Virus record (IMG/VR): IMGVR_UViG_3300043961_000090 | Strand: one strand, 5' to 3' | DNA length: 64,000 nucleotides | DNA from: an uncultured virus (IMG/VR IMGVR_UViG_3300043961_000090) | Taxonomy: Duplodnaviria; Heunggongvirae; Uroviricota; Caudoviricetes | In this document: piece by piece, positions 2,220 through 51,596 of the stretch | How positions within the stretch are numbered: position 1 is the stretch's first letter | How the letters are laid out: each line of letters begins with the position of its first letter | Made by a program: the position numbers and the translations under genes | The notes under the pieces: generated by a model | The model's input: only the letters and a program-made list of their open reading frames with translations | Database searches by the model: none | Told to the model about the DNA's origin: nothing

Positions 2220-2464
2220 CAGATATGCTATGTAACATGCATCCCGGTGAAACATTTGAGATCAAAAAGCATGTCAAGCCTGAAAATCAAGAATATTTTA
2301 TCAGATGTTTCAAGAGATTTGCAGGATTAATTAATTGTGATCGATGGTGGTATGAATGGGATGATGAATTTCTTACTATTACTTACCAGGAAAGCGATGA
2401 TTTTCTTAACAGAAATACGATTCGTTACAGAGACAAAAGGGGCAAAAAATGGTTACAGAGATAG
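2186..2464 (+). CDS. Hypothetical phage protein
   Basis: 92-aa ORF overlapping both neighbours. Confidence 0.6.
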   Translation: MDRRSEYYNHIADMLCNMHPGETFEIKKHVKPENQEYFIRCFKRFAGLINCDRWWYEWDDEFLTITYQESDDFLNRNTIRYRDKRGKKWLQR

Positions 2465-5400
2465 ATAAAGAAAAAATAAAAGAGACTGCCAATATCGTCG
2501 AGATTATACAGGAATTTGGAGTAAAGCTACAGAAGGCCGGCACAATATATAAAGCCTGCTGCCCATTTCATCAAGAAAACACTCCTTCTTTCTATGTTTC
2601 TCCCACACGTCGCACCTGGCACTGCTTCGGAGCATGCGGAGAAGGCGGTGATGTCATTTCTTTTCTCCAGAAATTGAATGGCTGGACTTTTATCGAGTCC
2701 TGTCATTGGCTGGCAAACAAATATAGCATTGATCTACATGAGGAGAAACGAACTCCGGAAGAAATAGCAGCAGAGAAGAAACGTGAATCCATGCTGAGTG
2801 CTATGCAGGAAGCCCAGAAATGGTTCACTGCACGAATGAATGTCTATCATAATACATCCCCAATATTCAATATCCTGCAAGATCGCGGAGGATATAAGGA
2901 AGATACTTTACGGAATTATGGTATTGGCATCAGCGGTACCAATGATGAACTTTGTCGGCAACTCTCTAAGTCTTTTCCAAAAGAAATTCTCATTGCTTGT
3001 AACCTGGGTTATGACAATATCCATGAACATGCTTTCCAGGACAAATTCCGAAACCGTATCATGTTCCCTTTCTATACTTTTTCGGGGAATATTATAGGAT
3101 ATACAGGCCGGACCATGATCAAAGACCTGAAACCTAAATACAACAACACCGGAGATACACCCTTATTTACGAAAGGAAACGAGATATGGGGTCTATACCA
3201 GGCACGGAAAGAGATTATGCGTTCGGACCAGGTGATCTTTGTCGAAGGACAGTTTGATGTCATAGGCCTTGCTGACCAGGGAATCAATAATGCAGTAGCT
3301 TTTTCGGGCACGGCACTGACGGACCAACAGCGGAAAAAGATCATGAGATTGACTCATAATGTCACACTCATGTATGATGGAGATACTGCAGGAATAGCAG
3401 CAACACAAAAGCATATTCCGGAGCTGCTGAAAGCAGGATTCCGGGTTCGATGCATATTGGTTCCGGACGGACAGGATCCGGATGAATTTTCGCACAAGGA
3501 AAAGAAGTTGGCCGTATGGATAAAAAACCACGAAGAAAGTTTTGTGGAATATCTCTACTCTACTACCCTATCAAATGATGAAATCAAGCAGAACCAGGCA
3601 ATCAATGAGATTCTGAAAGACATCGCCATTGTAGATGACAAAACACTACAGGAGAAATATCTGAAAAGACTGAGCAAGTTGGCAGACATGCAGCTCTCTA
3701 TTATCAGGGATCAATTCAAAGGTCAGAAAAAGCAGAACCTGAAGAAAGAGGTCAAGAATGACAATCCTAGATTTGTCGGCATTGAGGAAGCAAAAAATCA
3801 TATCTCTGATGAAAATGATTCCATCGAATTGGTAACTAACTGGGATTCTTTTTTTGATGGTTTGGAGCAACGTCCTGTCGTGATGGCCATAGGTATACCT
3901 CTTGAATCAGACCTGCAGTTGCTCAGGCAAATATCCTCTACCATACTTTTTACTCTTCCGGACGAAAAGGTAACAACGGATAAAGAAAATGATGAGATCT
4001 TGCTATTAAAAGCCCTCTATAAACAAGGCTATACGATCCTTGTTAAGAGTGCCAACAAGGAAGAGGATTTCATTGCCTGGTATATCGGACTATATACTTC
4101 AATCCTCGAAGAGAAAGAGAATGATTATACCGACCTCGAGCAGGATACTTATATCGACCGTTGCGCAGAAATGATTGCATACGCACCATCGACAAAGCGA
4201 GTACGATCAATGAAGAAATGGTCAGAAGGTCTGGGAATCACTGAACGTGCATTACGTGATTCTGTCAAGGTCATGCTCGACAAAACCAAGAGACCATCAC
4301 GGTCAAAAGATGAAGACGATACAGATGCAGAGTTTGATTTCAAAGATGAATCTACTCAGGTACCTGACTATGTCGAAAAGAATCCGGATTACGCATATAT
4401 GTTGAAACGCTTCCATTTTTATCCACGTCTGAATAAAGAGGATAATCCCTGTTGCTATATGTTCCGTTCCGGAGAATCTGAGAGTTATCATCGTGTCTGT
4501 GATTTTTATATGGAGCCCCTTATCCATATCTATGATAAGGACTCGAAAGAGAACAAACGTATTGTCAAACTTTATTCGATCAATAAGGATAGTTTCGGAC
4601 ATCCTGTAAAACCGAAATATGTGGAATGGCAGACAGATATATTCGGATCAATGAACACGGTAAAACTGGCCCTGATGCGTGAAGGTCCTTACAATATGGA
4701 GCACATGTCTGCAAAAGGACCGGAATGGGATAAGATCTGGAACTGGATGAGTTTGAAATTCAAACTCAGTTACAGACTCAATGTTCTCGGACAACAGAAA
4801 GAAGGCTTTTTCGCATTCAGTAACAAGATATTCTTTCAAAACGAAAAAGGAGAATATGAGCTTAGGGCAATGGATAACCTCGGCCTGGTATCTTACAAAG
4901 GTCAGATCTATTATTGCCCTGCCTGGAGCGAGATCTATCTGCATGACCGTAATGAGGACGATCCATACGAACAGGATAAATGGCTCTATTATCAGGATAT
5001 ACCCGAAAACAAGCAGATCACATTCGCATACTGGGCAAAATTGTTTAATGAAGTCTATAAGGTAAATAATAACGGCAAATGGGGTATTCTATTTGCTATT
5101 ATGTCTGCCTTCCGTTCAGACATTTTTCCGATCAAAGGTATTTTCACAGCCCTGTTTTTCATGGGGCAGACCGGTTCAGGTAAATCCCAGATAGCTATTT
5201 CTATAAGATCCTTGTTTATCAAACCGAACGTGCAGGTATCCAATCTGAACGGTATCAGCGAAGCAGCCTTTTTCTCGATCCTTGAAAGATACCGTGATAT
5301 CCCCTGGTTATTCGACGAATATAACGACAAAGAGATCTCTCCTGAGAAATTCCAGGGACTGAAAGCTTTGGTCTATGACGGCAACTCAAAGCAGAAACGA

Positions 5401-6375
5401 AGAGCAGCTACCGGAAATGACATCATCAGCACGAAGGTCAATACCTCAATTGTGCTTATGGGACAGGAAGCCCCACAGCGCGATGACAACGCATTGGCTA
5501 ATCGTGTCGTGCTCTGTGATGTTCCTCCACGTGATTTTACCAACGACCAGCACGCCAGTATGATTTTCAATGAACTAAAAAGTTATGAGAAAGAAGGTCT
5601 AAGTTATCTTCTATGTGAAGTATTGAAGATACGGCCAATCGTTCAGCAGAACTTTGCAAGTTATCAATCAGAATGTATAAAAGACCTGTCAGCAAGGGCC
5701 AGTGTCTCGGGAGGACGTTCAGGGGACTTGACACGTATCATCACTACCGTATCCTTTTTCTGCACAATATGCAAGATCATCGAGGATAATTGTCCGCAAC
5801 TCAAGTTGCCTTTTACATACGAAGAGTTTTTGAAGATCGCAGTTGAGAAAGTCAATTACCAGGTCGAATTGCTTTCACATACGGATAAGGTCAGTTCCTT
5901 CTTTGCTGCTATGGACTCTATGCTCGATAGACATATCATCATCAGAGGTCGTGAGTTCAAGATAGATACGCCAGAAGATGTCATGTTGCATCTGGACGAA
6001 GGAGACCGGACGGTACAGTCTGGAGTAAAGATCCTATATATGAACGTGAAATCAGTCTATGACCTTTACAAGAAAGACCGGACGACTGATGAACCGATCA
6101 GCAAGCAGACCCTTTCAACTTATCTGAAATCGAACCCTTGTTATATCGGCACCAAGCGGTCAGTAAGATTCACATGGACAGAACCTCACTATGAGAATAA
6201 AACAGATGCTGATGGCAACGAATCTGACCAAGCAACGATGACAATGGTTACAACGACAAAGAATACCTCATGCTATGTATTTGATTACTCGCGCCTAGCC
6301 AGGATCATGGATATTGACCTGGAGCGAGAACAGGACGATGATATTTCCAAAAATGAAGATAATGTTCCATTTTAA
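2449..6375 (+). CDS. DnaG-type primase fused to C-terminal P-loop helicase/ATPase
   Basis: CHC2 zinc finger (CPFH..CFGAC), Toprim (VEGQFD, YDGD), Walker A GQTGSGKS and Walker B WLFDE. Confidence 0.93.
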   Translation: MVTEIDKEKIKETANIVEIIQEFGVKLQKAGTIYKACCPFHQENTPSFYVSPTRRTWHCFGACGEGGDVISFLQKLNGWTFIESCHWLANKYSIDLHEEKRTPEEIAAEKKRESMLSAMQEAQKWFTARMNVYHNTSPIFNILQDRGGYKEDTLRNYGIGISGTNDELCRQLSKSFPKEILIACNLGYDNIHEHAFQDKFRNRIMFPFYTFSGNIIGYTGRTMIKDLKPKYNNTGDTPLFTKGNEIWGLYQARKEIMRSDQVIFVEGQFDVIGLADQGINNAVAFSGTALTDQQRKKIMRLTHNVTLMYDGDTAGIAATQKHIPELLKAGFRVRCILVPDGQDPDEFSHKEKKLAVWIKNHEESFVEYLYSTTLSNDEIKQNQAINEILKDIAIVDDKTLQEKYLKRLSKLADMQLSIIRDQFKGQKKQNLKKEVKNDNPRFVGIEEAKNHISDENDSIELVTNWDSFFDGLEQRPVVMAIGIPLESDLQLLRQISSTILFTLPDEKVTTDKENDEILLLKALYKQGYTILVKSANKEEDFIAWYIGLYTSILEEKENDYTDLEQDTYIDRCAEMIAYAPSTKRVRSMKKWSEGLGITERALRDSVKVMLDKTKRPSRSKDEDDTDAEFDFKDESTQVPDYVEKNPDYAYMLKRFHFYPRLNKEDNPCCYMFRSGESESYHRVCDFYMEPLIHIYDKDSKENKRIVKLYSINKDSFGHPVKPKYVEWQTDIFGSMNTVKLALMREGPYNMEHMSAKGPEWDKIWNWMSLKFKLSYRLNVLGQQKEGFFAFSNKIFFQNEKGEYELRAMDNLGLVSYKGQIYYCPAWSEIYLHDRNEDDPYEQDKWLYYQDIPENKQITFAYWAKLFNEVYKVNNNGKWGILFAIMSAFRSDIFPIKGIFTALFFMGQTGSGKSQIAISIRSLFIKPNVQVSNLNGISEAAFFSILERYRDIPWLFDEYNDKEISPEKFQGLKALVYDGNSKQKRRAATGNDIISTKVNTSIVLMGQEAPQRDDNALANRVVLCDVPPRDFTNDQHASMIFNELKSYEKEGLSYLLCEVLKIRPIVQQNFASYQSECIKDLSARASVSGGRSGDLTRIITTVSFFCTICKIIEDNCPQLKLPFTYEEFLKIAVEKVNYQVELLSHTDKVSSFFAAMDSMLDRHIIIRGREFKIDTPEDVMLHLDEGDRTVQSGVKILYMNVKSVYDLYKKDRTTDEPISKQTLSTYLKSNPCYIGTKRSVRFTWTEPHYENKTDADGNESDQATMTMVTTTKNTSCYVFDYSRLARIMDIDLEREQDDDISKNEDNVPF

Positions 6376-17931: not shown

Positions 17932-17960
17932 GCCCAGACTATTCTAGTTTGGGCTTTTTT
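17932..17960 (+). terminator. Intrinsic terminator
   Basis: GCCCAGACT/AGTTTGGGC stem plus T6. Confidence 0.8.
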
Positions 17961-18015
17961 ATTCTAAATCCATTAATTTAAATGTATAAATATTGTTAAT
18001 GTGATAAAGAAAGTC

Positions 18016-18056
18016 ATACTTTTGTTTTGATATGTGAGATAAAAGTATTACCTTTG
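18016..18056 (+). promoter_or_regulatory. Host-type promoter with overlapping inverted repeat
   Basis: TTTG 18026-18029, 19 bp, TACCTTTG 18049-18056; ATACTTTT/AAAAGTAT at 18016-18023 and 18041-18048. Confidence 0.7.
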
Positions 18057-18098
18057 TATCAGATAAAGAAATAAAGAACAATTTAAAAATCAAAGATT

Positions 18099-18347
18099 AT
18101 GAAAAAGATCAAGAACGTTACGACAGGTGTACTTAATGAGTTTGGAAACTTTTACGGAGATGTAGAAATTGAGCATGATAAATTAGAGGAGGCTTATGAT
18201 TTTCTCGAAGATGAATTAGATGATGATATGAAGAATTCCCCGGAATTGTGGGCCGGAGAATTTGAGAGCGGCTGTAAAAGATACGCCATCGTTGGTGACG
18301 GTGCAATGACATCCAATGGCGAATATGTAGTTGCTGAAATCATCTAA
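18099..18347 (+). CDS. Small acidic protein, anti-CRISPR candidate
   Basis: 82 aa, 20 D/E vs 7 K/R; own promoter; followed by HTH gene. Function is inference. Confidence 0.5.
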   Translation: MKKIKNVTTGVLNEFGNFYGDVEIEHDKLEEAYDFLEDELDDDMKNSPELWAGEFESGCKRYAIVGDGAMTSNGEYVVAEII

Positions 18348-18390
18348 ACTCAAAACCTAGCCCTGTACAGGTTAAGGGCAAAAAATTATT

Positions 18391-18657
18391 ATGAATAAGG
18401 ATATAGAGAATGAAGCCATCCGAATGTATTCGGCTGGCAAGAAGACAAAAGATATACTTACTGCTACTGGAGTAGGATCACAGAGCACATTATATCGGAT
18501 ATTAGATCGGAATAATATCCCTAAAAGGCCACCTAAAAAGGTAAAAAAAATAACGATATCCCTTGATAAGGATGTCATGGATAAAGTAAATCAGGAAAAT
18601 CCAGATAATTTATCGCAATGGATATGTGATAGAATCAGAAAATCATATCAAAATTAG
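18391..18657 (+). CDS. Small HTH plus RHH-like DNA-binding protein (Aca-like)
   Basis: TKDILTATGVGSQSTLYRIL HTH; KITISLDKDVMDKV...NLSQWICDRI RHH-like. Confidence 0.7.
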   Translation: MNKDIENEAIRMYSAGKKTKDILTATGVGSQSTLYRILDRNNIPKRPPKKVKKITISLDKDVMDKVNQENPDNLSQWICDRIRKSYQN

Positions 18658-18764
18658 AATAAAAGACTTTCCCTTCCATATTTTATTGCAAAAAGTGGAG
18701 GATATGCCATGATTTATACCGAAAAACACTAACTTTGCATTTAGAACTCTAAATGAAAGTGATT

Positions 18765-19616
18765 ATGAAGAAAATTATATTATTCCTAATTGTTATTATT
18801 GCTTCAGCAGCATTCGCCCAGAAAAATACACATCAATATCAGAGTAAAAAAAATACTGATTCCATCAAATATTGCCTTAATGTGCTGAAATACCCGGATC
18901 GCCTCCTCTTCGAGGGCTGGGGACTTCCATTTTATAGGTTGCCAAATGATGATAGTATAACTGACAGTCTACCGCAGGTTATAGATTGTTATATTATAGG
19001 TGATAACAAGGATCGGTATTTATGTACTTCGTATGGAAAAGCATTCTGGATTAATAAGAAAGATCTATTATTGAATCATGATAGCATTGATAATCTGCTG
19101 CATAACAAATGCAGGATCTATTCGCGATATGTGAGAAACAAAGGCATTTTCTACTCTAAAGGAGACCTGGATTATTTTAAAGACCAGATGAATCTCATAT
19201 ATGGCTCACCAGTAACCATATATACTGCCGAAAAATATCAGGAAAATGAATATATGAATACAACAAGTTTCAAATTTGAGATTGGCAATAATACCAAGAA
19301 GATCATCAAATATGTATATCTAACGATAAAAGGATATAATGCCGTAAATGATCCTGTTGAAAACAGTGTAACAGAAACATGTATCGGTCCTATTTCTCCT
19401 GAAGAAACAGCATCTTATAAATTTGAAAATATCTGGTGGACGGATGTTATCGAAAAAGTAAAAATAATCGGGTTGAAACTAAAATTTACGGATAATACTT
19501 ATCGAATTATTCCTCATCCGGAGAAATGTATTTATACACCCGTGTTTGGATATCAGGTAAACTGCTTTAGCAAAATAGATACTTGTATAGATGTTGATGA
19601 TCTAATAGGTAAATAA
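18765..19616 (+). CDS. Exported accessory (moron) protein
   Basis: Signal peptide MKKIILFLIVIIASAAFAQ; TAACTTTG promoter upstream. Confidence 0.7.
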   Translation: MKKIILFLIVIIASAAFAQKNTHQYQSKKNTDSIKYCLNVLKYPDRLLFEGWGLPFYRLPNDDSITDSLPQVIDCYIIGDNKDRYLCTSYGKAFWINKKDLLLNHDSIDNLLHNKCRIYSRYVRNKGIFYSKGDLDYFKDQMNLIYGSPVTIYTAEKYQENEYMNTTSFKFEIGNNTKKIIKYVYLTIKGYNAVNDPVENSVTETCIGPISPEETASYKFENIWWTDVIEKVKIIGLKLKFTDNTYRIIPHPEKCIYTPVFGYQVNCFSKIDTCIDVDDLIGK

Positions 19617-19623
19617 AAATATT

Positions 19624-20235
19624 ATGAAGAAAATTCTATTGCTATTTTTAATGCTGATCAGTCTAAGTGCAAATGCGCAAAAAATAGATTTGGATAAACA
19701 GGAAACTGATGGATCAAGACTGATAATAACTACTCGTGTTCTATTTGCAGAACATGACTTAACATTTGTACTTATCCCAAAGAAGGATAAAAGACCATCT
19801 TCTATGGATCTTGCAGCGGAATGTTGTATCAATAAAGATGGAGAGAAAACTTATTTTGTTGATTTCCCCATTTTTTATTATCAGCATAAAATACTAATAA
19901 AAAAAGGAAGTCGGCTATTATTCAAGTTTGATAATGATTCTATTATGGAAATAAAATCATCAAGAGATGTTGATGAACTTAATAATGATCTAAGTTTTAT
20001 TGGAGATAAAGCAACTTATTCAGCAGTTCTTTCTTATGAAATGTCTTCTTCTCAAGCTAATATATTTCGGAATCATAAGGTCGTTAAAATGAGGTTAGAA
20101 ACTGATCTTGATTATCTTGATTTGGACCCAACCTATTATAACAAGAAATTTGATTTTAATGGAAAATTCATAAAATGTATTGATGTTATAAACAAAGCTC
20201 TCATGAAATCAAATGATCTTTATAATGGCTTTTGA
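19624..20235 (+). CDS. Exported accessory (moron) protein
   Basis: Signal peptide MKKILLLFLMLISLSANAQ; low GC. Confidence 0.7.
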   Translation: MKKILLLFLMLISLSANAQKIDLDKQETDGSRLIITTRVLFAEHDLTFVLIPKKDKRPSSMDLAAECCINKDGEKTYFVDFPIFYYQHKILIKKGSRLLFKFDNDSIMEIKSSRDVDELNNDLSFIGDKATYSAVLSYEMSSSQANIFRNHKVVKMRLETDLDYLDLDPTYYNKKFDFNGKFIKCIDVINKALMKSNDLYNGF

Positions 20236-20274
20236 TTGAAAAAAGAAACGATTTTTGTTAAAAAACAAGGGATT
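20223..20274 (+). repeat. 52-bp direct repeat, copy 1
   Basis: TAATGGCTTTTGATTGAAAAAAGAAACG...CAAGGGATT identical to 20803-20854. Confidence 0.95.
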
Positions 20275-20781
20275 ATGAAGAAAATTATATTGCTATTTTT
20301 AATACTGGTCAGCTTTGGAATGACAAATATTAGCGCAAAAAGATGCTATATTGACGTGATGATTCTTCCTACAAGAATATCACAACCATCTTATATGGCT
20401 CTTGTTGATCAAGGAAATAATATGCTGAAATCTTTTGCATATTTATATGATAATGATCAATATGGTTCCTATTTTTTTACTCCAATGGCTGTTTGTAATC
20501 TTATGGCAAACAATGGATGGGTTCTTTCGCAATATATTCAAACAAATCTTCCTACTGAAGCAGCTGGAATTTTTGATGTTTTTCTTGGAAAAAGGGAAAC
20601 TGATATTACCAAAATAGAACATTATATCTTTTATAAAGATTCTTTATCAGAAAACAATGAATCTTTATATGGGTTAAAATTAACTGATAAATTGGTAAAA
20701 CCTCAAAAGACCGAAAAAGAAAAAGCATTCGAGAAAAAACATGAAAAAATCAGAGAACAGGGTGATGGCGTATACCAATAA
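20275..20781 (+). CDS. Exported accessory (moron) protein
   Basis: Signal peptide MKKIILLFLILVSFGMTNISA; lies between the 52-bp repeats. Confidence 0.7.
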   Translation: MKKIILLFLILVSFGMTNISAKRCYIDVMILPTRISQPSYMALVDQGNNMLKSFAYLYDNDQYGSYFFTPMAVCNLMANNGWVLSQYIQTNLPTEAAGIFDVFLGKRETDITKIEHYIFYKDSLSENNESLYGLKLTDKLVKPQKTEKEKAFEKKHEKIREQGDGVYQ

Positions 20782-20802: not shown

Positions 20803-20854
20803 TAATGGCTTTTGATTGAAAAAAGAAACGATTTTTGTTAAAAAACAAGGGATT
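20803..20854 (+). repeat. 52-bp direct repeat, copy 2
   Basis: Identical to 20223-20274. Confidence 0.95.
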
Positions 20855-21136: not shown

Positions 21137-21439
21137 ATGGAAAAACAAAAATCTATTCAGCTTCAGGAGTATTCGCATGTTCCGTCTCTTATCCAGGAGA
21201 AAATCTCTTATGCGAAAACATCGGCCAGGACCTGGCTTAATTCAAATTCTACTTTTTACAGTCGAATCGCGGGATATCCGGTTACCCGGATTATGGCCAT
21301 CAGAATCGGGATCATTCTTCCGCTGCTGCTGGTTATCGCTGCCATCATGGTAATGCAGTCTCCAGTGATAGCATGTATCTCCGGAGCAGTCTCTGCCTGG
21401 ATCGTCTATCGACTCAATCAGAAAGGAGGCAGAAAATGA
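21137..21439 (+). CDS. Small two-TM membrane protein
   Basis: Two hydrophobic segments; first gene after the antisense leader. Confidence 0.7.
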   Translation: MEKQKSIQLQEYSHVPSLIQEKISYAKTSARTWLNSNSTFYSRIAGYPVTRIMAIRIGIILPLLLVIAAIMVMQSPVIACISGAVSAWIVYRLNQKGGRK

Positions 21440-21795
21440 AAAGTAAGTGGTATTTTACAAAATCTTATAAAAAATATTTTGCTGTTAATGCTAAAGGAGG
21501 AAAATTGCAACGATATATAAATGATTATATTTATATACTTTTCGATAAAAAATCGATGAATGAATTTGTCAATGAAATCAAACAAAAATGCAAATCTTTA
21601 GATCAAGAATATCCGAGAACTACTCCTTTAGAAGTATATTTCGAAAAAGAAAAACATCTTTCTTATATTGGTTACAAACTTACTATATATAAAAGAAATC
21701 GTCCGGATGCCATTGTTGTTTTAGATTTTGCTGAGGTCAGACGAATAGAACATTATCAGACAGAAATTGATTTTGAGGAAGGAACAAAAAAATGA
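21436..21795 (+). CDS. Hypothetical protein
   Basis: ATGA coupling; start MKSKWYF. Confidence 0.65.
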   Translation: MKSKWYFTKSYKKYFAVNAKGGKLQRYINDYIYILFDKKSMNEFVNEIKQKCKSLDQEYPRTTPLEVYFEKEKHLSYIGYKLTIYKRNRPDAIVVLDFAEVRRIEHYQTEIDFEEGTKK

Positions 21796-22115
21796 AAAAA
21801 GTATATATTGAAATCACAGATGGGACCTTATGCCCCTCATCCACCGAGGAGGAATTATATCATTGGTGTGTAGATAATTTCCATGCCACTATTATGACAC
21901 CTATCTTCTTTGAATTGATGGATATCGCCATCATGAGAAAAATCAAGGCAATCAACGAGAAGAATAAGAACGGATTGCAACTTGTCAGGAAAATTGATAT
22001 GAACGAATATGAGATTACGGTATCGCGATCCAATTGCCGGATATCCGTCGACAGCCTGTTTACTATCTCAGGTTACAAGGCGAAAAAGGAATATACGGAC
22101 GAAGATGTCCTATGA
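21792..22115 (+). CDS. Hypothetical protein
   Basis: ATGA coupling. Confidence 0.6.
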   Translation: MKKVYIEITDGTLCPSSTEEELYHWCVDNFHATIMTPIFFELMDIAIMRKIKAINEKNKNGLQLVRKIDMNEYEITVSRSNCRISVDSLFTISGYKAKKEYTDEDVL

Positions 22116-44010: not shown

Positions 44011-44498
44011 TTCCCTTATAGTTTTAAAAGAAAATAAAACATTCTTGCAACAAAATAATGTTCCATCTTCTGTCCCAGAGCTGCGGTTCTGGCTTAAAGC
44101 AAGAACCGCAGGAATATCAGCTTGGCGGATATTCGGCTTTAAAGGAAACAGTTCTGCTGTATGGGTAGGAAATCGGCTACCTCCCAGTGCAGGGCTTGGA
44201 GTGATGACATCGTCATGAACGGAAAGGACAAACGGGAGGTGTCGGATGAACATACCGATACAGATGTACCGTTTCCGTTTGGGAGTATGGTGGGCAAAGC
44301 CTCCATAGAATGCCTAAGCCACTCTCCCGAAGCCTGTCCGTATCCCTATGGACAGGTGCAAAGAGGTCTTTCGAGAATGTTCACAGTGAAACCGTAAATA
44401 TTCTCAAGATACTGCTTTGCAGGGCGGCAAGCATATTTTTCGCAATGAACATTAAATCTTAATAACTACTCGTTTTGAAATTAGAATATCTTCTCTAT
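44011..44498 (+). repeat. ~490-bp direct repeat copy 1, containing a structured RNA-like element (~44055-44440)
   Basis: Roughly 90% identical by eye to 46853-47342; many stem-loops; terminal hairpin plus T-tract. Confidence 0.9.
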
Positions 44499-46852: not shown

Positions 46853-47342
46853 TTCCCTTGTAGTTTTTAAAAGAAAATAAAACATTCTTGCAACAAAAAC
46901 AATGAGCCATCCTCTGTCCCAAAGCTGCGGTTCTGGCTTAAAGCAAGAACCGCAGGAATATCAGCTTGACGGATATTCGGCTTTAAAGGAAACGGTTCTG
47001 CTGTATGGGTAGGAAATCGGCTACCTCTCAGTGCAGGACTTGGAGTGATGACATCGTCATGAACGGAAAGGACAAACGGGAGGTGCCGGATGAACATACC
47101 GATACAGATGTACCGTTTCCGTTTAGGAGTATGGTGGGCAAAGCTCCTATAGAATGTCTTAACCACTCTCCCGAAGCCTGTCCGTGTCCCTATGGATAGG
47201 TGCAAAGAGGTATTTCGAGAATATTCACAGTGAAACCGTAAATATTCTCAAGATACTGCTTTGCAGGGTGGCAAGCATATTTTTTACAAGAAACATTAAA
47301 TATTAACATCTACCCATTTGGAAATTAGAATATTTTCTCTAT
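46853..47342 (+). repeat. ~490-bp direct repeat copy 2, containing a structured RNA-like element (~46898-47285)
   Basis: Homologous to 44011-44498, with several substitutions that preserve pairing on the + strand. Confidence 0.9.
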
Positions 47343-47433: not shown

Positions 47434-50400
47434 TCAACACAACTTTCTCAGTATCTCATTCACCATTTTCTCATACCACGATGCTATCTGAAGAGTAAAA
47501 TGACCATGAGAAAGATCAAAGGACGGCATAGAATTGATTTTCTTCAGTTCAGGAAATTCATTATGACAGAATTTATTACGAATTTCAAACAATAAATCCC
47601 AGTCCCCTTGATTAATATATCCCTTTCTTTTCAACCAATTCAAATAGGCTTCATGCTGGACATTAGGACCTTTTACAGTGCCTTCATTAAATAACTTGGT
47701 TTTATCTTCTGGGGAGATGACTGACAAAATACTCTTTTCCAATTCAAAAACCTTGCTGAATACTCTTTCCCGGTACTGTTCATAATCCTCCATTTCTGCA
47801 ACTAATTTATCAAAATCAATTTTCTCTTCTTTAAAATACGGGAGAAGATTTTGCATTCTTTCGTCATGAAGGAATCGAATAAAGAAGGAATAATCTTTTC
47901 TTTTCCTATGTGCCACAATAGTCCGATCATATAGACGTGCTTCCATATCTTCTTCCTCTTTAAGTGGATTTTTTGCAGAATTTGGATCTATATCATTAGG
48001 AGAGATTGTAAATGTTGAAATTCCTGAGTCAGAAGTAGATTTATTCTTTTTCGTGTTCATCTCCAAGAATACATGCCGTATCATCATCAACAAAATCCGG
48101 TCTTCCGTACAATAATAGCGGATTTTCTTTTCTTTCTCAGCTACAGCCTTTTTGAAAATTACTTTTAGCTGTTTTTCTGAGATTCTCTCCTTTTCTTTTT
48201 TGCATTGCTCAATAACATCATCGAGTATTGATTCATAATAATATTTTATGGGCCTATCTTCTGTTGGATCCACATTCACGACACACTCGTAAGGCCTATC
48301 CTTGAATATCGTATAATATCGTTTTTTATGATAAAATGGTTGTAGGTCTTTCAGCCACATTCCAAGCAATCGAGAATAGTTATAGGTCTTTTCACCATCA
48401 GAAATAGTTACTTTTTCTTTCAATCTAGTGATTAAAGCACTATCAAATAAATTAGTTGGCAGATCCGCAGGTTTAGGAACTTGTTTTGTAGAAGTAGAAT
48501 TTTGAGTTTGTACCGATTTCAACCAATTGTCGAAATCATGGACTAATTTCAAATTATTATCTAATTCCGAATTATCGTCTGCTTTAATCCATTTTTGATA
48601 AGTTAGGGGTACTCCTATTTCAGGCATACGAATCTCCGTTTCATTCTTTTTTTTCTTTTCATCCCATTTTGTGAAATAGAATGTCTTATGTAGCCAGCCC
48701 TTCTTTAATGATAAGTATTCTTTATAAAAATCCAAGGTTGAATTTGTCCTTTGACGATCCAAATCTGCAAGGAATGGGTGTCCCTTATCCTTATCCAATA
48801 AGTTCAAATCTCGCTTGCATAACTCCCAAAAGAGTTGCTTCTTTTCATTATTTGCATAAAGAGCTAGGCACTCCTGTAATAGGTCATAATAAAATGAAGT
48901 AATTTTAGTCTTTACATCACGATCTATCACTAGTTTGATAATATCACGAGCTAATTCTGACGCCATCTCGCCAACCTTTAGTTGTCTTCCCTTTTCTATA
49001 TCTTTTATCCGCTTCTTACAGTCTGTAGCAGCTTCCTTAATGCGCTCTTTGAAAGAGTAATTATTTCCAGTATCCTCAACATTTAGCCAATAGTCAATAA
49101 TACGACTCGGAATTTGTCGGCAATCCAATCCTTCAGGTTTCAATATAGTATCAAGATGAAGTTTTCTTTGATGGAATTCTGCCTGATATTCGTCATAGTC
49201 TTTTTTAGTTCTGTAATTTAGAGACTTTTTAGAATCAGTTGATATTCTTTTTAATAAACTGTAACAGGGTAACTGTTCCTTAATCTTATCTATCCATTTT
49301 CTGTTCAGTAAGCAATACTTGTTTTTATTCAAATAATTTTTAATTAGATTATAAGCGGATCCAGGCGAGAGCAACTCCAGTAATACAACCTTTGGTAATT
49401 CTGATATGCTCAAAAAAGCCTGTGGATTTTCCTTGTTAAAGGATATCTCTTGATTACTAAAAGCTAATGCAATTTTATTTTCTACAATATTATAATGAGG
49501 AGCATACTGAGTGAATTTTACTTCCGTACCTTTAAATAATTCTATGAAATCCTTTTCTTCAATGATTTTCTTCTGTACATCATCATTATAAGTTGATAAT
49601 TTCCCAAAAGTTTTAACATCTTTGACAATGCTTCTATTCTTTTCCTCAGGCATTTGCCCGAGCACACGTTTAGAATATGACTTTGTTTCAACTTTACCTA
49701 AATGAATTTGAAAATCATATTTAAAATTTTCTGAAGCATCAAGGAAGTTCAAAGCAAATTCTGGGAATCTGTCCCGACTTCGTTTTAATGTTGAAATGTC
49801 TTTCAAATAAGATTCATAGTCCTTGTCATCATATTTCGCATTCAAGGTTGGTTTGAATTGCTCCTGGTCATTTTTACCTAGGGTATTATATAATTCCTTC
49901 GGGGCACGTTGCAGATAGTTCAATGCATCCATAAGTACAGCCTGTTGAGGATTTTGGCTGTTCAGTTTATTATGAGGAAGTTTTACGCATAACACGGAAA
50001 AGGTCTCTCTTGTAGCCTGAAAATCCGGAGTTTCGGAATTTTTGAATCCACTGATCTTATTAAAGAAATGAAAAGCATTTTCTTTATCCAGAAATAAGCA
50101 ACAGAAGAATACCAAGCCTATTGTCGTCACTTGGTTCGTCTCGTCTACAAATAATTCCGGCCCGATTTTCTTTCTTACATTATCGAAACATTTATCTGAA
50201 ATCACATCTTGAAATCTTTTTTGGGCAAGTTTTACTGCCACTTCAAACAACTCTCTAAGTTGAAGTACTAACTCATTTTTAATATTTACTTTTCGTTGAG
50301 TGCCTGTATCTATGGAAAAATAATGAGTATATTCATTCCTAAAATCACACAGTTCTTTAAAGGCCATTTTTAGGAAATCAGCCAACTTCCCGATATCCGT

Positions 50401-50715
50401 ACCAGTGGCATCATCATCCATTCCTATATTTCTTCTGAAATCACTGGAAAAAGCATTTGCCAATGGAAGATAACGGCATAGATTCAGGTAGATTATTCCA
50501 CCAGGATCAGTAAAAGAAAAAGATTCCGTTAAGAAGGTATTACCTATATTACTATCATCACCCAATTTTGGTTTATTAAATTTTCTGGACATCTCTTGAG
50601 AAATCATAAAGACATTATGTCTCGCAATGTTCAGATATGCTCCAAAATATTCCGGAGTAGTTTTGATTGTATAGGTTTTTGATATCCTATGAAGTGTGTT
50701 TTTGTTTTTTATCAT
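47434..50715 (-). CDS. cas13b: Type VI-B CRISPR effector Cas13b
   Basis: 1093 aa; FGAYLNIARHN N-terminus; two HEPN RxxxxH motifs (RNEYTH, RNKFCH); DRFPEFALNFLD, GEMASELARDI; adjacent 36-nt repeat array. Confidence 0.93.
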   Translation of the reverse strand: MIKNKNTLHRISKTYTIKTTPEYFGAYLNIARHNVFMISQEMSRKFNKPKLGDDSNIGNTFLTESFSFTDPGGIIYLNLCRYLPLANAFSSDFRRNIGMDDDATGTDIGKLADFLKMAFKELCDFRNEYTHYFSIDTGTQRKVNIKNELVLQLRELFEVAVKLAQKRFQDVISDKCFDNVRKKIGPELFVDETNQVTTIGLVFFCCLFLDKENAFHFFNKISGFKNSETPDFQATRETFSVLCVKLPHNKLNSQNPQQAVLMDALNYLQRAPKELYNTLGKNDQEQFKPTLNAKYDDKDYESYLKDISTLKRSRDRFPEFALNFLDASENFKYDFQIHLGKVETKSYSKRVLGQMPEEKNRSIVKDVKTFGKLSTYNDDVQKKIIEEKDFIELFKGTEVKFTQYAPHYNIVENKIALAFSNQEISFNKENPQAFLSISELPKVVLLELLSPGSAYNLIKNYLNKNKYCLLNRKWIDKIKEQLPCYSLLKRISTDSKKSLNYRTKKDYDEYQAEFHQRKLHLDTILKPEGLDCRQIPSRIIDYWLNVEDTGNNYSFKERIKEAATDCKKRIKDIEKGRQLKVGEMASELARDIIKLVIDRDVKTKITSFYYDLLQECLALYANNEKKQLFWELCKRDLNLLDKDKGHPFLADLDRQRTNSTLDFYKEYLSLKKGWLHKTFYFTKWDEKKKKNETEIRMPEIGVPLTYQKWIKADDNSELDNNLKLVHDFDNWLKSVQTQNSTSTKQVPKPADLPTNLFDSALITRLKEKVTISDGEKTYNYSRLLGMWLKDLQPFYHKKRYYTIFKDRPYECVVNVDPTEDRPIKYYYESILDDVIEQCKKEKERISEKQLKVIFKKAVAEKEKKIRYYCTEDRILLMMIRHVFLEMNTKKNKSTSDSGISTFTISPNDIDPNSAKNPLKEEEDMEARLYDRTIVAHRKRKDYSFFIRFLHDERMQNLLPYFKEEKIDFDKLVAEMEDYEQYRERVFSKVFELEKSILSVISPEDKTKLFNEGTVKGPNVQHEAYLNWLKRKGYINQGDWDLLFEIRNKFCHNEFPELKKINSMPSFDLSHGHFTLQIASWYEKMVNEILRKLC

Positions 50716-50900
50716 TTTGTATTGCTTTTTTAGATCAACTAAGTTATCACCAAAGATACAAAAATCAAAACAAATTACATTATGAATTTTAGATTTTCTG
50801 ATTAGTTCCTAATAAAATATATTGCTCGGTTTTGGAGTAGACATATTGTCTTCTGAAAAACTGGCAATATATGTTTTAAGCTTCTGCAGATCATTGAACA

Positions 50901-51596
50901 GTTGTTTATACCCTACAAAATTAAGGCAGCTACAACTTCAGTACGTGTATGATTCATATAAAAGCGGTTGTTTATACCCTACAAAATTAAGGCAGCTACA
51001 ACAATGACAACACTTTTTCTCATAGTTCCACCGTTGTTTATACCCTACAAAATTAAGGCAGCTACAACGGAATGACGACATAATCAATATGCCTTTCGGT
51101 TGTTTATACCCTACAAAATTAAGGCAGCTACAACACTTTAATTCTCAGGATTCCACGACACCATGTTGTTTATACCCTACAAAATTAAGGCAGCTACAAC
51201 GATGGAACATACAACATCATCGTAGACAACGTTGTTTATACCCTACAAAATTAAGGCAGCTACAACTGATCTGCATGAGGAGAAACGAACTCCGGAGTTG
51301 TTTATACCCTACAAAATTAAGGCAGCTACAACACTCTCGTAACCATTATACTGGATCTACAGGTTGTTTATACCCTACAAAATTAAGGCAGCTACAACAA
51401 ATTCGTATCTGACCAGATGATTCATTTCGTTGTTTATACCCTACAAAATTAAGGCAGCTACAACAAAGAATATTGCAACAATGCAAGTAATCATGTTGTT
51501 TATACCCTACAAAATTAAGGCAGCTACAACGCAATCAAAAGAATTGCAAGAGTTAGGGGTGTTGTTTATACCCTACAAAATTAAGGCAGCTACAAC
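50901..51596 (-). CRISPR. CRISPR array: 11 identical 36-bp repeats, 10 spacers of 30 bp
   Basis: Repeat on - strand GTTGTAGCTGCCTTAATTTTGTAGGGTATAAACAAC, period 66 bp; GTTG...CAAC ends typical of VI-B. Confidence 0.98.

Follow-up and report, generated by a model that had tools for sequence, protein, structure and literature searches.

Positions 18016 to 18657 of the window, by which the whole stretch of 64,000 nucleotides analysed here is meant, in all likelihood hold an accessory cassette of a temperate phage of Bacteroidales which regulates itself and belongs to a shuffled set, built in the manner of the acr-aca operons. The cassette consists of a gene for an acidic protein, referred to as ORF82, and the gene of a regulator which joins an HTH to a probable ribbon-helix-helix domain (HTH-RHH). 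It has a well-defined anatomy, its gene pair is mobile, its cargo varies and enters into fusions, and its relatives have a 23-nt element in common with ArdA genes. The unit resembles a working acr-aca operon, its two proteins being candidates for the Aca and Acr classes. As regards the cargo, the proposal that ORF82 is a counter-defence protein is evenly balanced, and the narrower case of an action on Cas13b is counted separately.

The cassette belongs to a prophage. The first 20,000 bases of the window, counted from base 1, recur without a difference in an IMG/VR record 41,440 bases long, and the prophage is accordingly taken to extend over positions 1 to about 41,440. It encodes a primase, a protease, a lysin, a holin, a tape measure protein, and an integrase. 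The primase gene is part of an operon read rightward, which is preceded by divergent promoters (1246 and 1333) and by a repressor-like gene read leftward (781-1188). The product of the latter gave no Pfam family and only a PHROG of unknown function; its position and the divergent promoters point to a putative CI-like repressor. The primase gene (2449-6375) encodes a phage protein of 1308 aa, in which a DnaG-type primase at the N-terminus is followed by some 800 residues for which no family is listed. Beyond the prophage lies an ICE with a second integrase, AbiE, HipAB, TraG, and TraM. This ICE carries cas13b and an 11-repeat array (47434-51596, minus strand), both outside the prophage. Cas13b itself (47434-50715, minus strand) matches NF038190 at E 1e-198, contains both HEPN motifs, and is at most 34% identical (BLAST) to 17 homologous loci. 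The array, with its 10 spacers, is upstream of the gene, and no evident cas1, cas2, csx27, or csx28 was seen when the ORF listing for 36-54 kb was judged by eye. In the defence region of the ICE, a direct repeat of about 330 bp (94-100%; 44022-44351 and 46865-47195) flanks the hipA-hipB module, which suggests that cassettes are gained or lost by recombination.

The cassette lies in a region of low GC content (30-38% over 17-22 kb, with 40-48% in the flanks). It is insulated by an intrinsic terminator 3' of the lysis genes (17932-17961, plus strand), consisting of a 10-pair stem (hairpin 17932-17954) and a T-run. A Bacteroidota-type promoter follows (18026-18056, plus strand), with the -33 box TTTG at 18026 and the -7 box TACCTTTG at 18049-18056. 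It was assigned by the Bacteroidota promoter consensus, a pattern which occurs 10 times in the 64 kb when both strands are counted; a sigma-70 scan gave no site at this promoter. ORF82, the putative counter-defence effector of 82 aa (18099-18347, plus strand), comes next, and the HTH-RHH regulator, an Aca-like protein of 88 aa, closes the cassette (18391-18657, plus strand). The two genes are separated by an intergenic element which appears to be structured (18353-18379, plus strand), as a 5-bp hairpin and possibly a pseudoknot, its fold z-score being only -0.9. A near-identical 26-nt hairpin or pseudoknot-like element is found 3' of a capsid-like gene in an unrelated phage (L135). The layout described in the first-pass annotation, with terminator, promoter, 8-bp repeat, acidic 82-aa ORF, and 88-aa HTH protein, is present in the sequence in all its parts. 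Downstream, three accessory genes (18753-20781) have near-identical signal-peptide-like starts, and an exact 52-bp direct repeat (20223-20274 and 20803-20854) flanks an accessory gene of 181 aa.

Two candidate operators are present. The one chosen in the first-pass annotation is a perfect 8-bp inverted repeat (18016-18048, without strand), formed by ATACTTTT at 18016-18023 and AAAAGTAT at 18041-18048 with a spacer of 17 nt. This repeat is real and overlaps the promoter, but it is also common by chance. Indeed, a perfect repeat of at least 8 bp appears in 10% of 2000 shuffles of the cassette promoter, and it is found in 22 of 31 HTH-RHH promoters as compared to 20 of 43 control cassette promoters. 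Because such repeats are frequent both in shuffles and in comparable promoters, the 8-bp repeat alone is weak evidence. Its 6-bp core is retained with identical spacing in L014, and the core is present in 2 of 13 HTH-RHH lineages and in 2 of 20 control lineages. The other candidate is the motif T(G/T)TGAT, of which two plus-strand copies (18000-18005 and, over the -33 box, 18026-18031) may act as half-sites for HTH-RHH. Among the HTH-RHH promoters, 11 of 13 lineages contain the forward motif, as compared to 4 of 20 lineages with other regulators (Fisher p 4e-4), a test which is partly circular, as the motif was chosen from the same promoters and overlaps the -33 box. L003, the sole other lineage with ORF82 in this test, is devoid of it. 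We infer that the operator candidate valid for the whole family is not the 8-bp repeat but the T(G/T)TGAT copy which covers the -33 box, the repeat being retained as one of two candidates in this promoter.

ORF82 contains 20 D/E against 7 K/R and has a pI of 4.1; other acidic ORFs of the same prophage have pI values of 4.4-4.7. It is small, acidic, encoded by a mobile element, and free of known domains, which is the profile of an Acr-type protein, and acidity together with small size is a weak predictor of anti-defence function. No family match was obtained in Pfam, NCBIfam, PHROG, or PADLOC. A word-index search yielded 5 relatives at 70-99%, and a full HMM search yielded 37, of which one repeat protein of 1470 aa was excluded, leaving 36 representatives for the family analysis. 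The domain is net acidic by at least 5 in 30 of these 36. Fusions, defined by at least 40 extra residues, account for 14 of the 36, and three of the fusion partners are also found as stand-alone genes in cassettes. The conserved positions include G10, L12, E49, W51, F55, Y62, I64, G68, T71, S72, G74, and Y76. The structure was predicted with confidence (pLDDT 87.5) and consists of a strand, three helices, and three strands. Against PDB sequences, nothing was found below E 7.8, and Foldseek returned no PDB match to the model at E<=0.001, an absence which does not prove a new fold. In a fold comparison with the model the best VIA Z was 4.1, and AcrIE2 ranked 50th at noise level (Z 2.9, rmsd 4.0, 60 aligned). 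The best viral fold match was the uncharacterised A0A8S5UDI1 (E 3e-3, TM 0.56), and the best ESM Atlas score, 0.76, serves as a lead only. GenBank phages gave no significant match to ORF82 or to the HTH-RHH protein, and a GTDB pattern scan found no ORF82 among 110 candidates. The cluster records of 30 family members contained no host name. Judged by these comparisons of sequence and model, ORF82 appears to found a small family for which no family or fold match was found.

The 88-aa regulator matches Pfam HTH_7 at E 3.4e-5, just over the cut-off. Its model begins with an HTH made of three helices, continues in an extended stretch, and ends in a further pair of helices, the helices being predicted at 3-14, 19-26, 31-40, 60-69, and 74-86. 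The model helices and the sequence pattern indicate that the C-terminal part is probably a ribbon-helix-helix; residues 53-83 also give a weak match to MazE antitoxin (E 0.03, far below the cut-off). No Aca was present among the PDB sequence or fold matches. The best PDB fold match of the model was ArdK, the establishment regulator of R388, at a level which is not significant (E 0.12, TM 0.32). ArdK is a repressor of anti-restriction genes.

The HTH-RHH family comprises at least 490 members at E<=1e-8, the few named ones being from Prevotella. A set of 37 loci was examined, made up of 33 loci, three from the 23-nt element set, and the window. The first-pass annotation had proposed to check whether homologues of the HTH protein sit beside variable small genes, and this is what was observed: in 30 of the 37 loci the regulator is directly preceded by a co-oriented gene, and six unrelated families are represented among these neighbours. 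Clustering of the 57 upstream proteins gave 24 groups, three of them larger non-cassette genes in L204. The regulator is placed at the operon end or near it. As a small DNA-binding-type protein 3' of variable small genes in mobile elements, it shows two of the features expected of an Aca. By its gene order the family appears to behave like an Aca. As a side observation, three genomes have an HTH-RHH locus, and one of these (G004, with L204 and L207) encodes Cas13b as well, a number too small to interpret.

The ORF82 and HTH-RHH pair is mobile. Leaving aside L001 and L002, which are copies of the same prophage and are not independent, the pair recurs at 70% and 46% local identity, respectively, in L003 and in L004/L005, two other phage contexts with almost no other DNA in common with the window. 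There, the ORF82 homologue has the regulator on its 3' side and, on its 5' side, an additional acidic ORF and a promoter of similar kind. The acr-aca-like reading proposed in the first-pass annotation gains support from this mobility and from the variable cargo upstream of the regulator. Further homologues, each fused to another domain, occur in small-gene arrays (L012-L014). In L012 and L013 they are without an adjoining HTH-RHH regulator.

In L003-L005, L013, and L014, the ORF82 homologues are preceded by the 23-nt element, whose pattern is GCTRYGCTAYCGGCATGACGGGC. The window is devoid of it, and the different hairpin at 18353-18379 occupies the slot which the element takes in related cassettes. 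In Rfam, neither the element nor the window region had a match that reached gathering level. The element is present in at least 120 viral stretches, 80 of which had their neighbourhoods analysed, and in 1 of 401 Bacteroidales genomes. The first ATG is 6-8 bases past its end in 68 of 93 distinct contexts, and exactly 7 in 55. Two variants, in which G6 is changed to C together with C23 to G, hint at a pseudoknot, an indication drawn from two sequences. The element could have a role in translation, in the stability of the RNA, or in the shuffling of cassettes.

As a mark of variable small-gene cassettes, the 23-nt element is seen in many viral contigs (L015-L094 and L239-L258; e.g., L003:4971-4993). 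The 350 ORFs chained around it form 142 clusters, some of them spurious or non-cassette, and the operons end in an XRE-HTH, an RHH, or a member of the HTH-RHH family. When 97 proteins near the element were compared with Pfam, the majority had no family, and the informative matches were ArdA, PcfK, PcfJ, LPD11, MutS_I, and HicA. ArdA directly adjoins the element in L015, L023, and L256 (Pfam E 4e-9, 6e-12, and 4e-9), the genes of L015 and L256 being near-identical, and in L042 the element is located 3' of a PcfK gene, at a distance of three genes. This link to ArdA and PcfK concerns 3 of 80 element loci and is two steps removed from the window. It has been reported that PcfK is the AcrIIA9 domain, often with ArdA around it (PMC6739104), and that, in ICEs of Porphyromonas, ArdA and AcrIIA9 (PcfK) are markers of the anti-defence regions (bioRxiv 2026.08.04.741601). 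Such regions and the loci of the ORF82 homologues have the 23-nt element, in few loci, and an acidic cargo in common; conversely, ORF82 matches neither ArdA nor AcrIIA9, and the window is without the element. Three common cargo families gave nothing significant against PDB sequences. Separately, the accessory gene at 19624-20235 has a likely homologue, alike by eye, 3' of an element-marked cassette in another phage (L077, L254).

These features suggest how the cassette might operate. When the DNA enters a cell or the prophage is induced, the host-type promoter, being free of repressor, would give a burst of ORF82. HTH-RHH, dimerised through its RHH, would then bind T(G/T)TGAT and/or the inverted repeat and turn the operon off, as the family-wide association of the motif suggests. 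In the least secure step, the acidic ORF82 would bind and block a host defence protein, whose nature would most likely be that of a nucleic-acid-binding protein such as a Cas effector or a restriction enzyme. The same autoregulated cassette might instead carry cargo unrelated to anti-defence, for example, a gene for host take-over, inter-phage competition, superinfection exclusion, or lysogen fitness. This is possible, if somewhat doubtful. It would agree with the fact that no gene chained to HTH-RHH was assigned to a known acr or anti-defence family by comparison with Pfam, NCBIfam (92 proteins), or PHROGs (28 proteins), with the position of the distant L012 homologue in a long array of small early-type genes lacking the regulator, and with the three accessory genes adjoining the cassette, secreted or membrane proteins as judged from their N-termini. 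On the other hand, the function-bearing, non-regulatory Pfam matches at or near the 23-nt element (ArdA, PcfK/PcfJ, LPD11, MutS_I, and HicA) are all of the conflict type. The chances are about even that HTH-RHH represents a new Aca-like family and that the 23-nt element is a mark of anti-defence cargo.

The first-pass annotation had also linked ORF82 to the neighbouring Cas13b through a self-targeting spacer. The self-targeting is real: 1 of the 10 spacers (51267-51296) matches the primase gene of the prophage (2730-2759, plus strand) at 29 of 30 positions, the one mismatch being synonymous, and the protospacer is flanked by U on the 5' side and by AGA on the 3' side; the best matches of the other nine do not exceed 20 of 30. 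Of 16 homologous loci, 10 have cas13b-sense repeats in this same orientation and the remaining 6 have no repeat in the stretch compared, so the crRNA is taken to pair with the primase mRNA as its antisense. Both flanks are in agreement with the PFS rule of BzCas13b, given in PMC13288109 as a 5' non-C and a 3' NAN/NNA. As a clue to an Acr, such a spacer is nevertheless weak, as RNA targeting tolerates a repressed prophage. It has been argued, as reasoning, that type VI systems remain inactive as long as no such lytic mRNA is produced (bioRxiv 2024.10.25.620265). A silent prophage can be tolerated without an Acr because Cas13 needs a transcript, and the spacer is best explained by this transcription-dependent tolerance. 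The same chain, from a self-targeting type VI spacer over a prophage HTH to its neighbour as an acr, has been criticised in Leptotrichia, where the candidates tested gave no inhibition of Cas13a (bioRxiv 2021.05.27.445852).

If ORF82 inhibited the neighbouring Cas13b, the prophage could complete its induction although the crRNA recognises its primase mRNA. The Cas13b is intact, with both HEPN motifs, its guide would be antisense to the target with one synonymous mismatch and fitting flanks, and an inhibitor would be needed precisely at induction. Even so, this is very unlikely. The specific link is not supported: the target is a lytic-type transcript and Cas13b resides on a separate ICE, and of 401 Bacteroidales genomes only 18 gave a Cas13b match over the cut-off. 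Lysogens tolerate type VI targets (bioRxiv 2024.10.25.620265), and the spacer is imperfect, mid-array, and was probably acquired from a related phage. Other unannotated accessory genes (18753-20781 and 21137-22115) are equally available as candidates. In the 401 genomes the ORF82 family was found 0 times and the regulator once (in the centre genome), which with 18 for Cas13b is too rare for a co-occurrence test; a complex prediction of ORF82 with Cas13b residues 180-1093 scored 0.00, evidence neither way. The spacer leaves room for another relation, a possible ICE-versus-prophage control of induction through the action of Cas13b on primase mRNA.

In bioRxiv 2024.11.17.623997, AcrVIB1 is described as the only known Cas13b inhibitor, and it inhibits even the Cas13b of its own genome poorly. 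Like ORF82, it is a small protein from a Bacteroidota genome which also carries Cas13b. Its size of about 14 kDa, our own estimate by subtraction from a 34-kDa complex, compares with the 82 aa of ORF82. A bolder reading would make ORF82 a second natural Cas13b inhibitor, unrelated in structure to the first, and the unit at once the entry to an undescribed cassette system of Bacteroidales phages, in which an HTH-RHH Aca and a 23-nt start-proximal element would serve dozens of putative counter-defence families; as a whole, this is highly improbable.

That the two genes form a type II toxin-antitoxin system, in which ORF82 would be the toxin and HTH-RHH an antitoxin regulating its own synthesis, is scarcely to be expected: two small genes of opposite charge and the weak MazE-antitoxin match speak for it, but the pairing is not fixed, the regulator accompanying six unrelated upstream families and ORF82 homologues standing without it in L012 and L013, and the ORF82 model matched no toxin fold.

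The acr-aca-like accessory cassette of the preferred reading may be compared with the known operons. It resembles them in its strong promoter of host type, which carries operator candidates, in a cargo that is small and variable, and in a small DNA-binding protein at or near the operon end; it differs in its Bacteroidota host and in that no known acr was found beside the regulator. According to PMC13551039, Aca1-13 are HTH proteins and Aca14 is an RHH protein, RHH Acas repressing anti-defence operons being thereby on record, whereas here an HTH and a probable RHH would be combined in one chain. No description of the HTH-RHH family, of ORF82, or of the 23-nt element was found in the literature, though subscription papers, supplements, and the DeepAcr/AcrDB tables may list them. 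The sequence of the element was not found in print, and five short motifs were absent from 12 of 13 supplement files of PMC8008677.

According to the same paper (PMC8008677), Acr prediction performs poorly in phages of Bacteroidetes despite heavy CRISPR targeting. The HTH-RHH family and the 23-nt element provide two new baits for guilt-by-association searches, and with them dozens of uncharacterised cargo families for screening. Moreover, with its native Cas13b, guide, and target, the locus offers a direct test of the tolerance of lysogeny by type VI-B systems.
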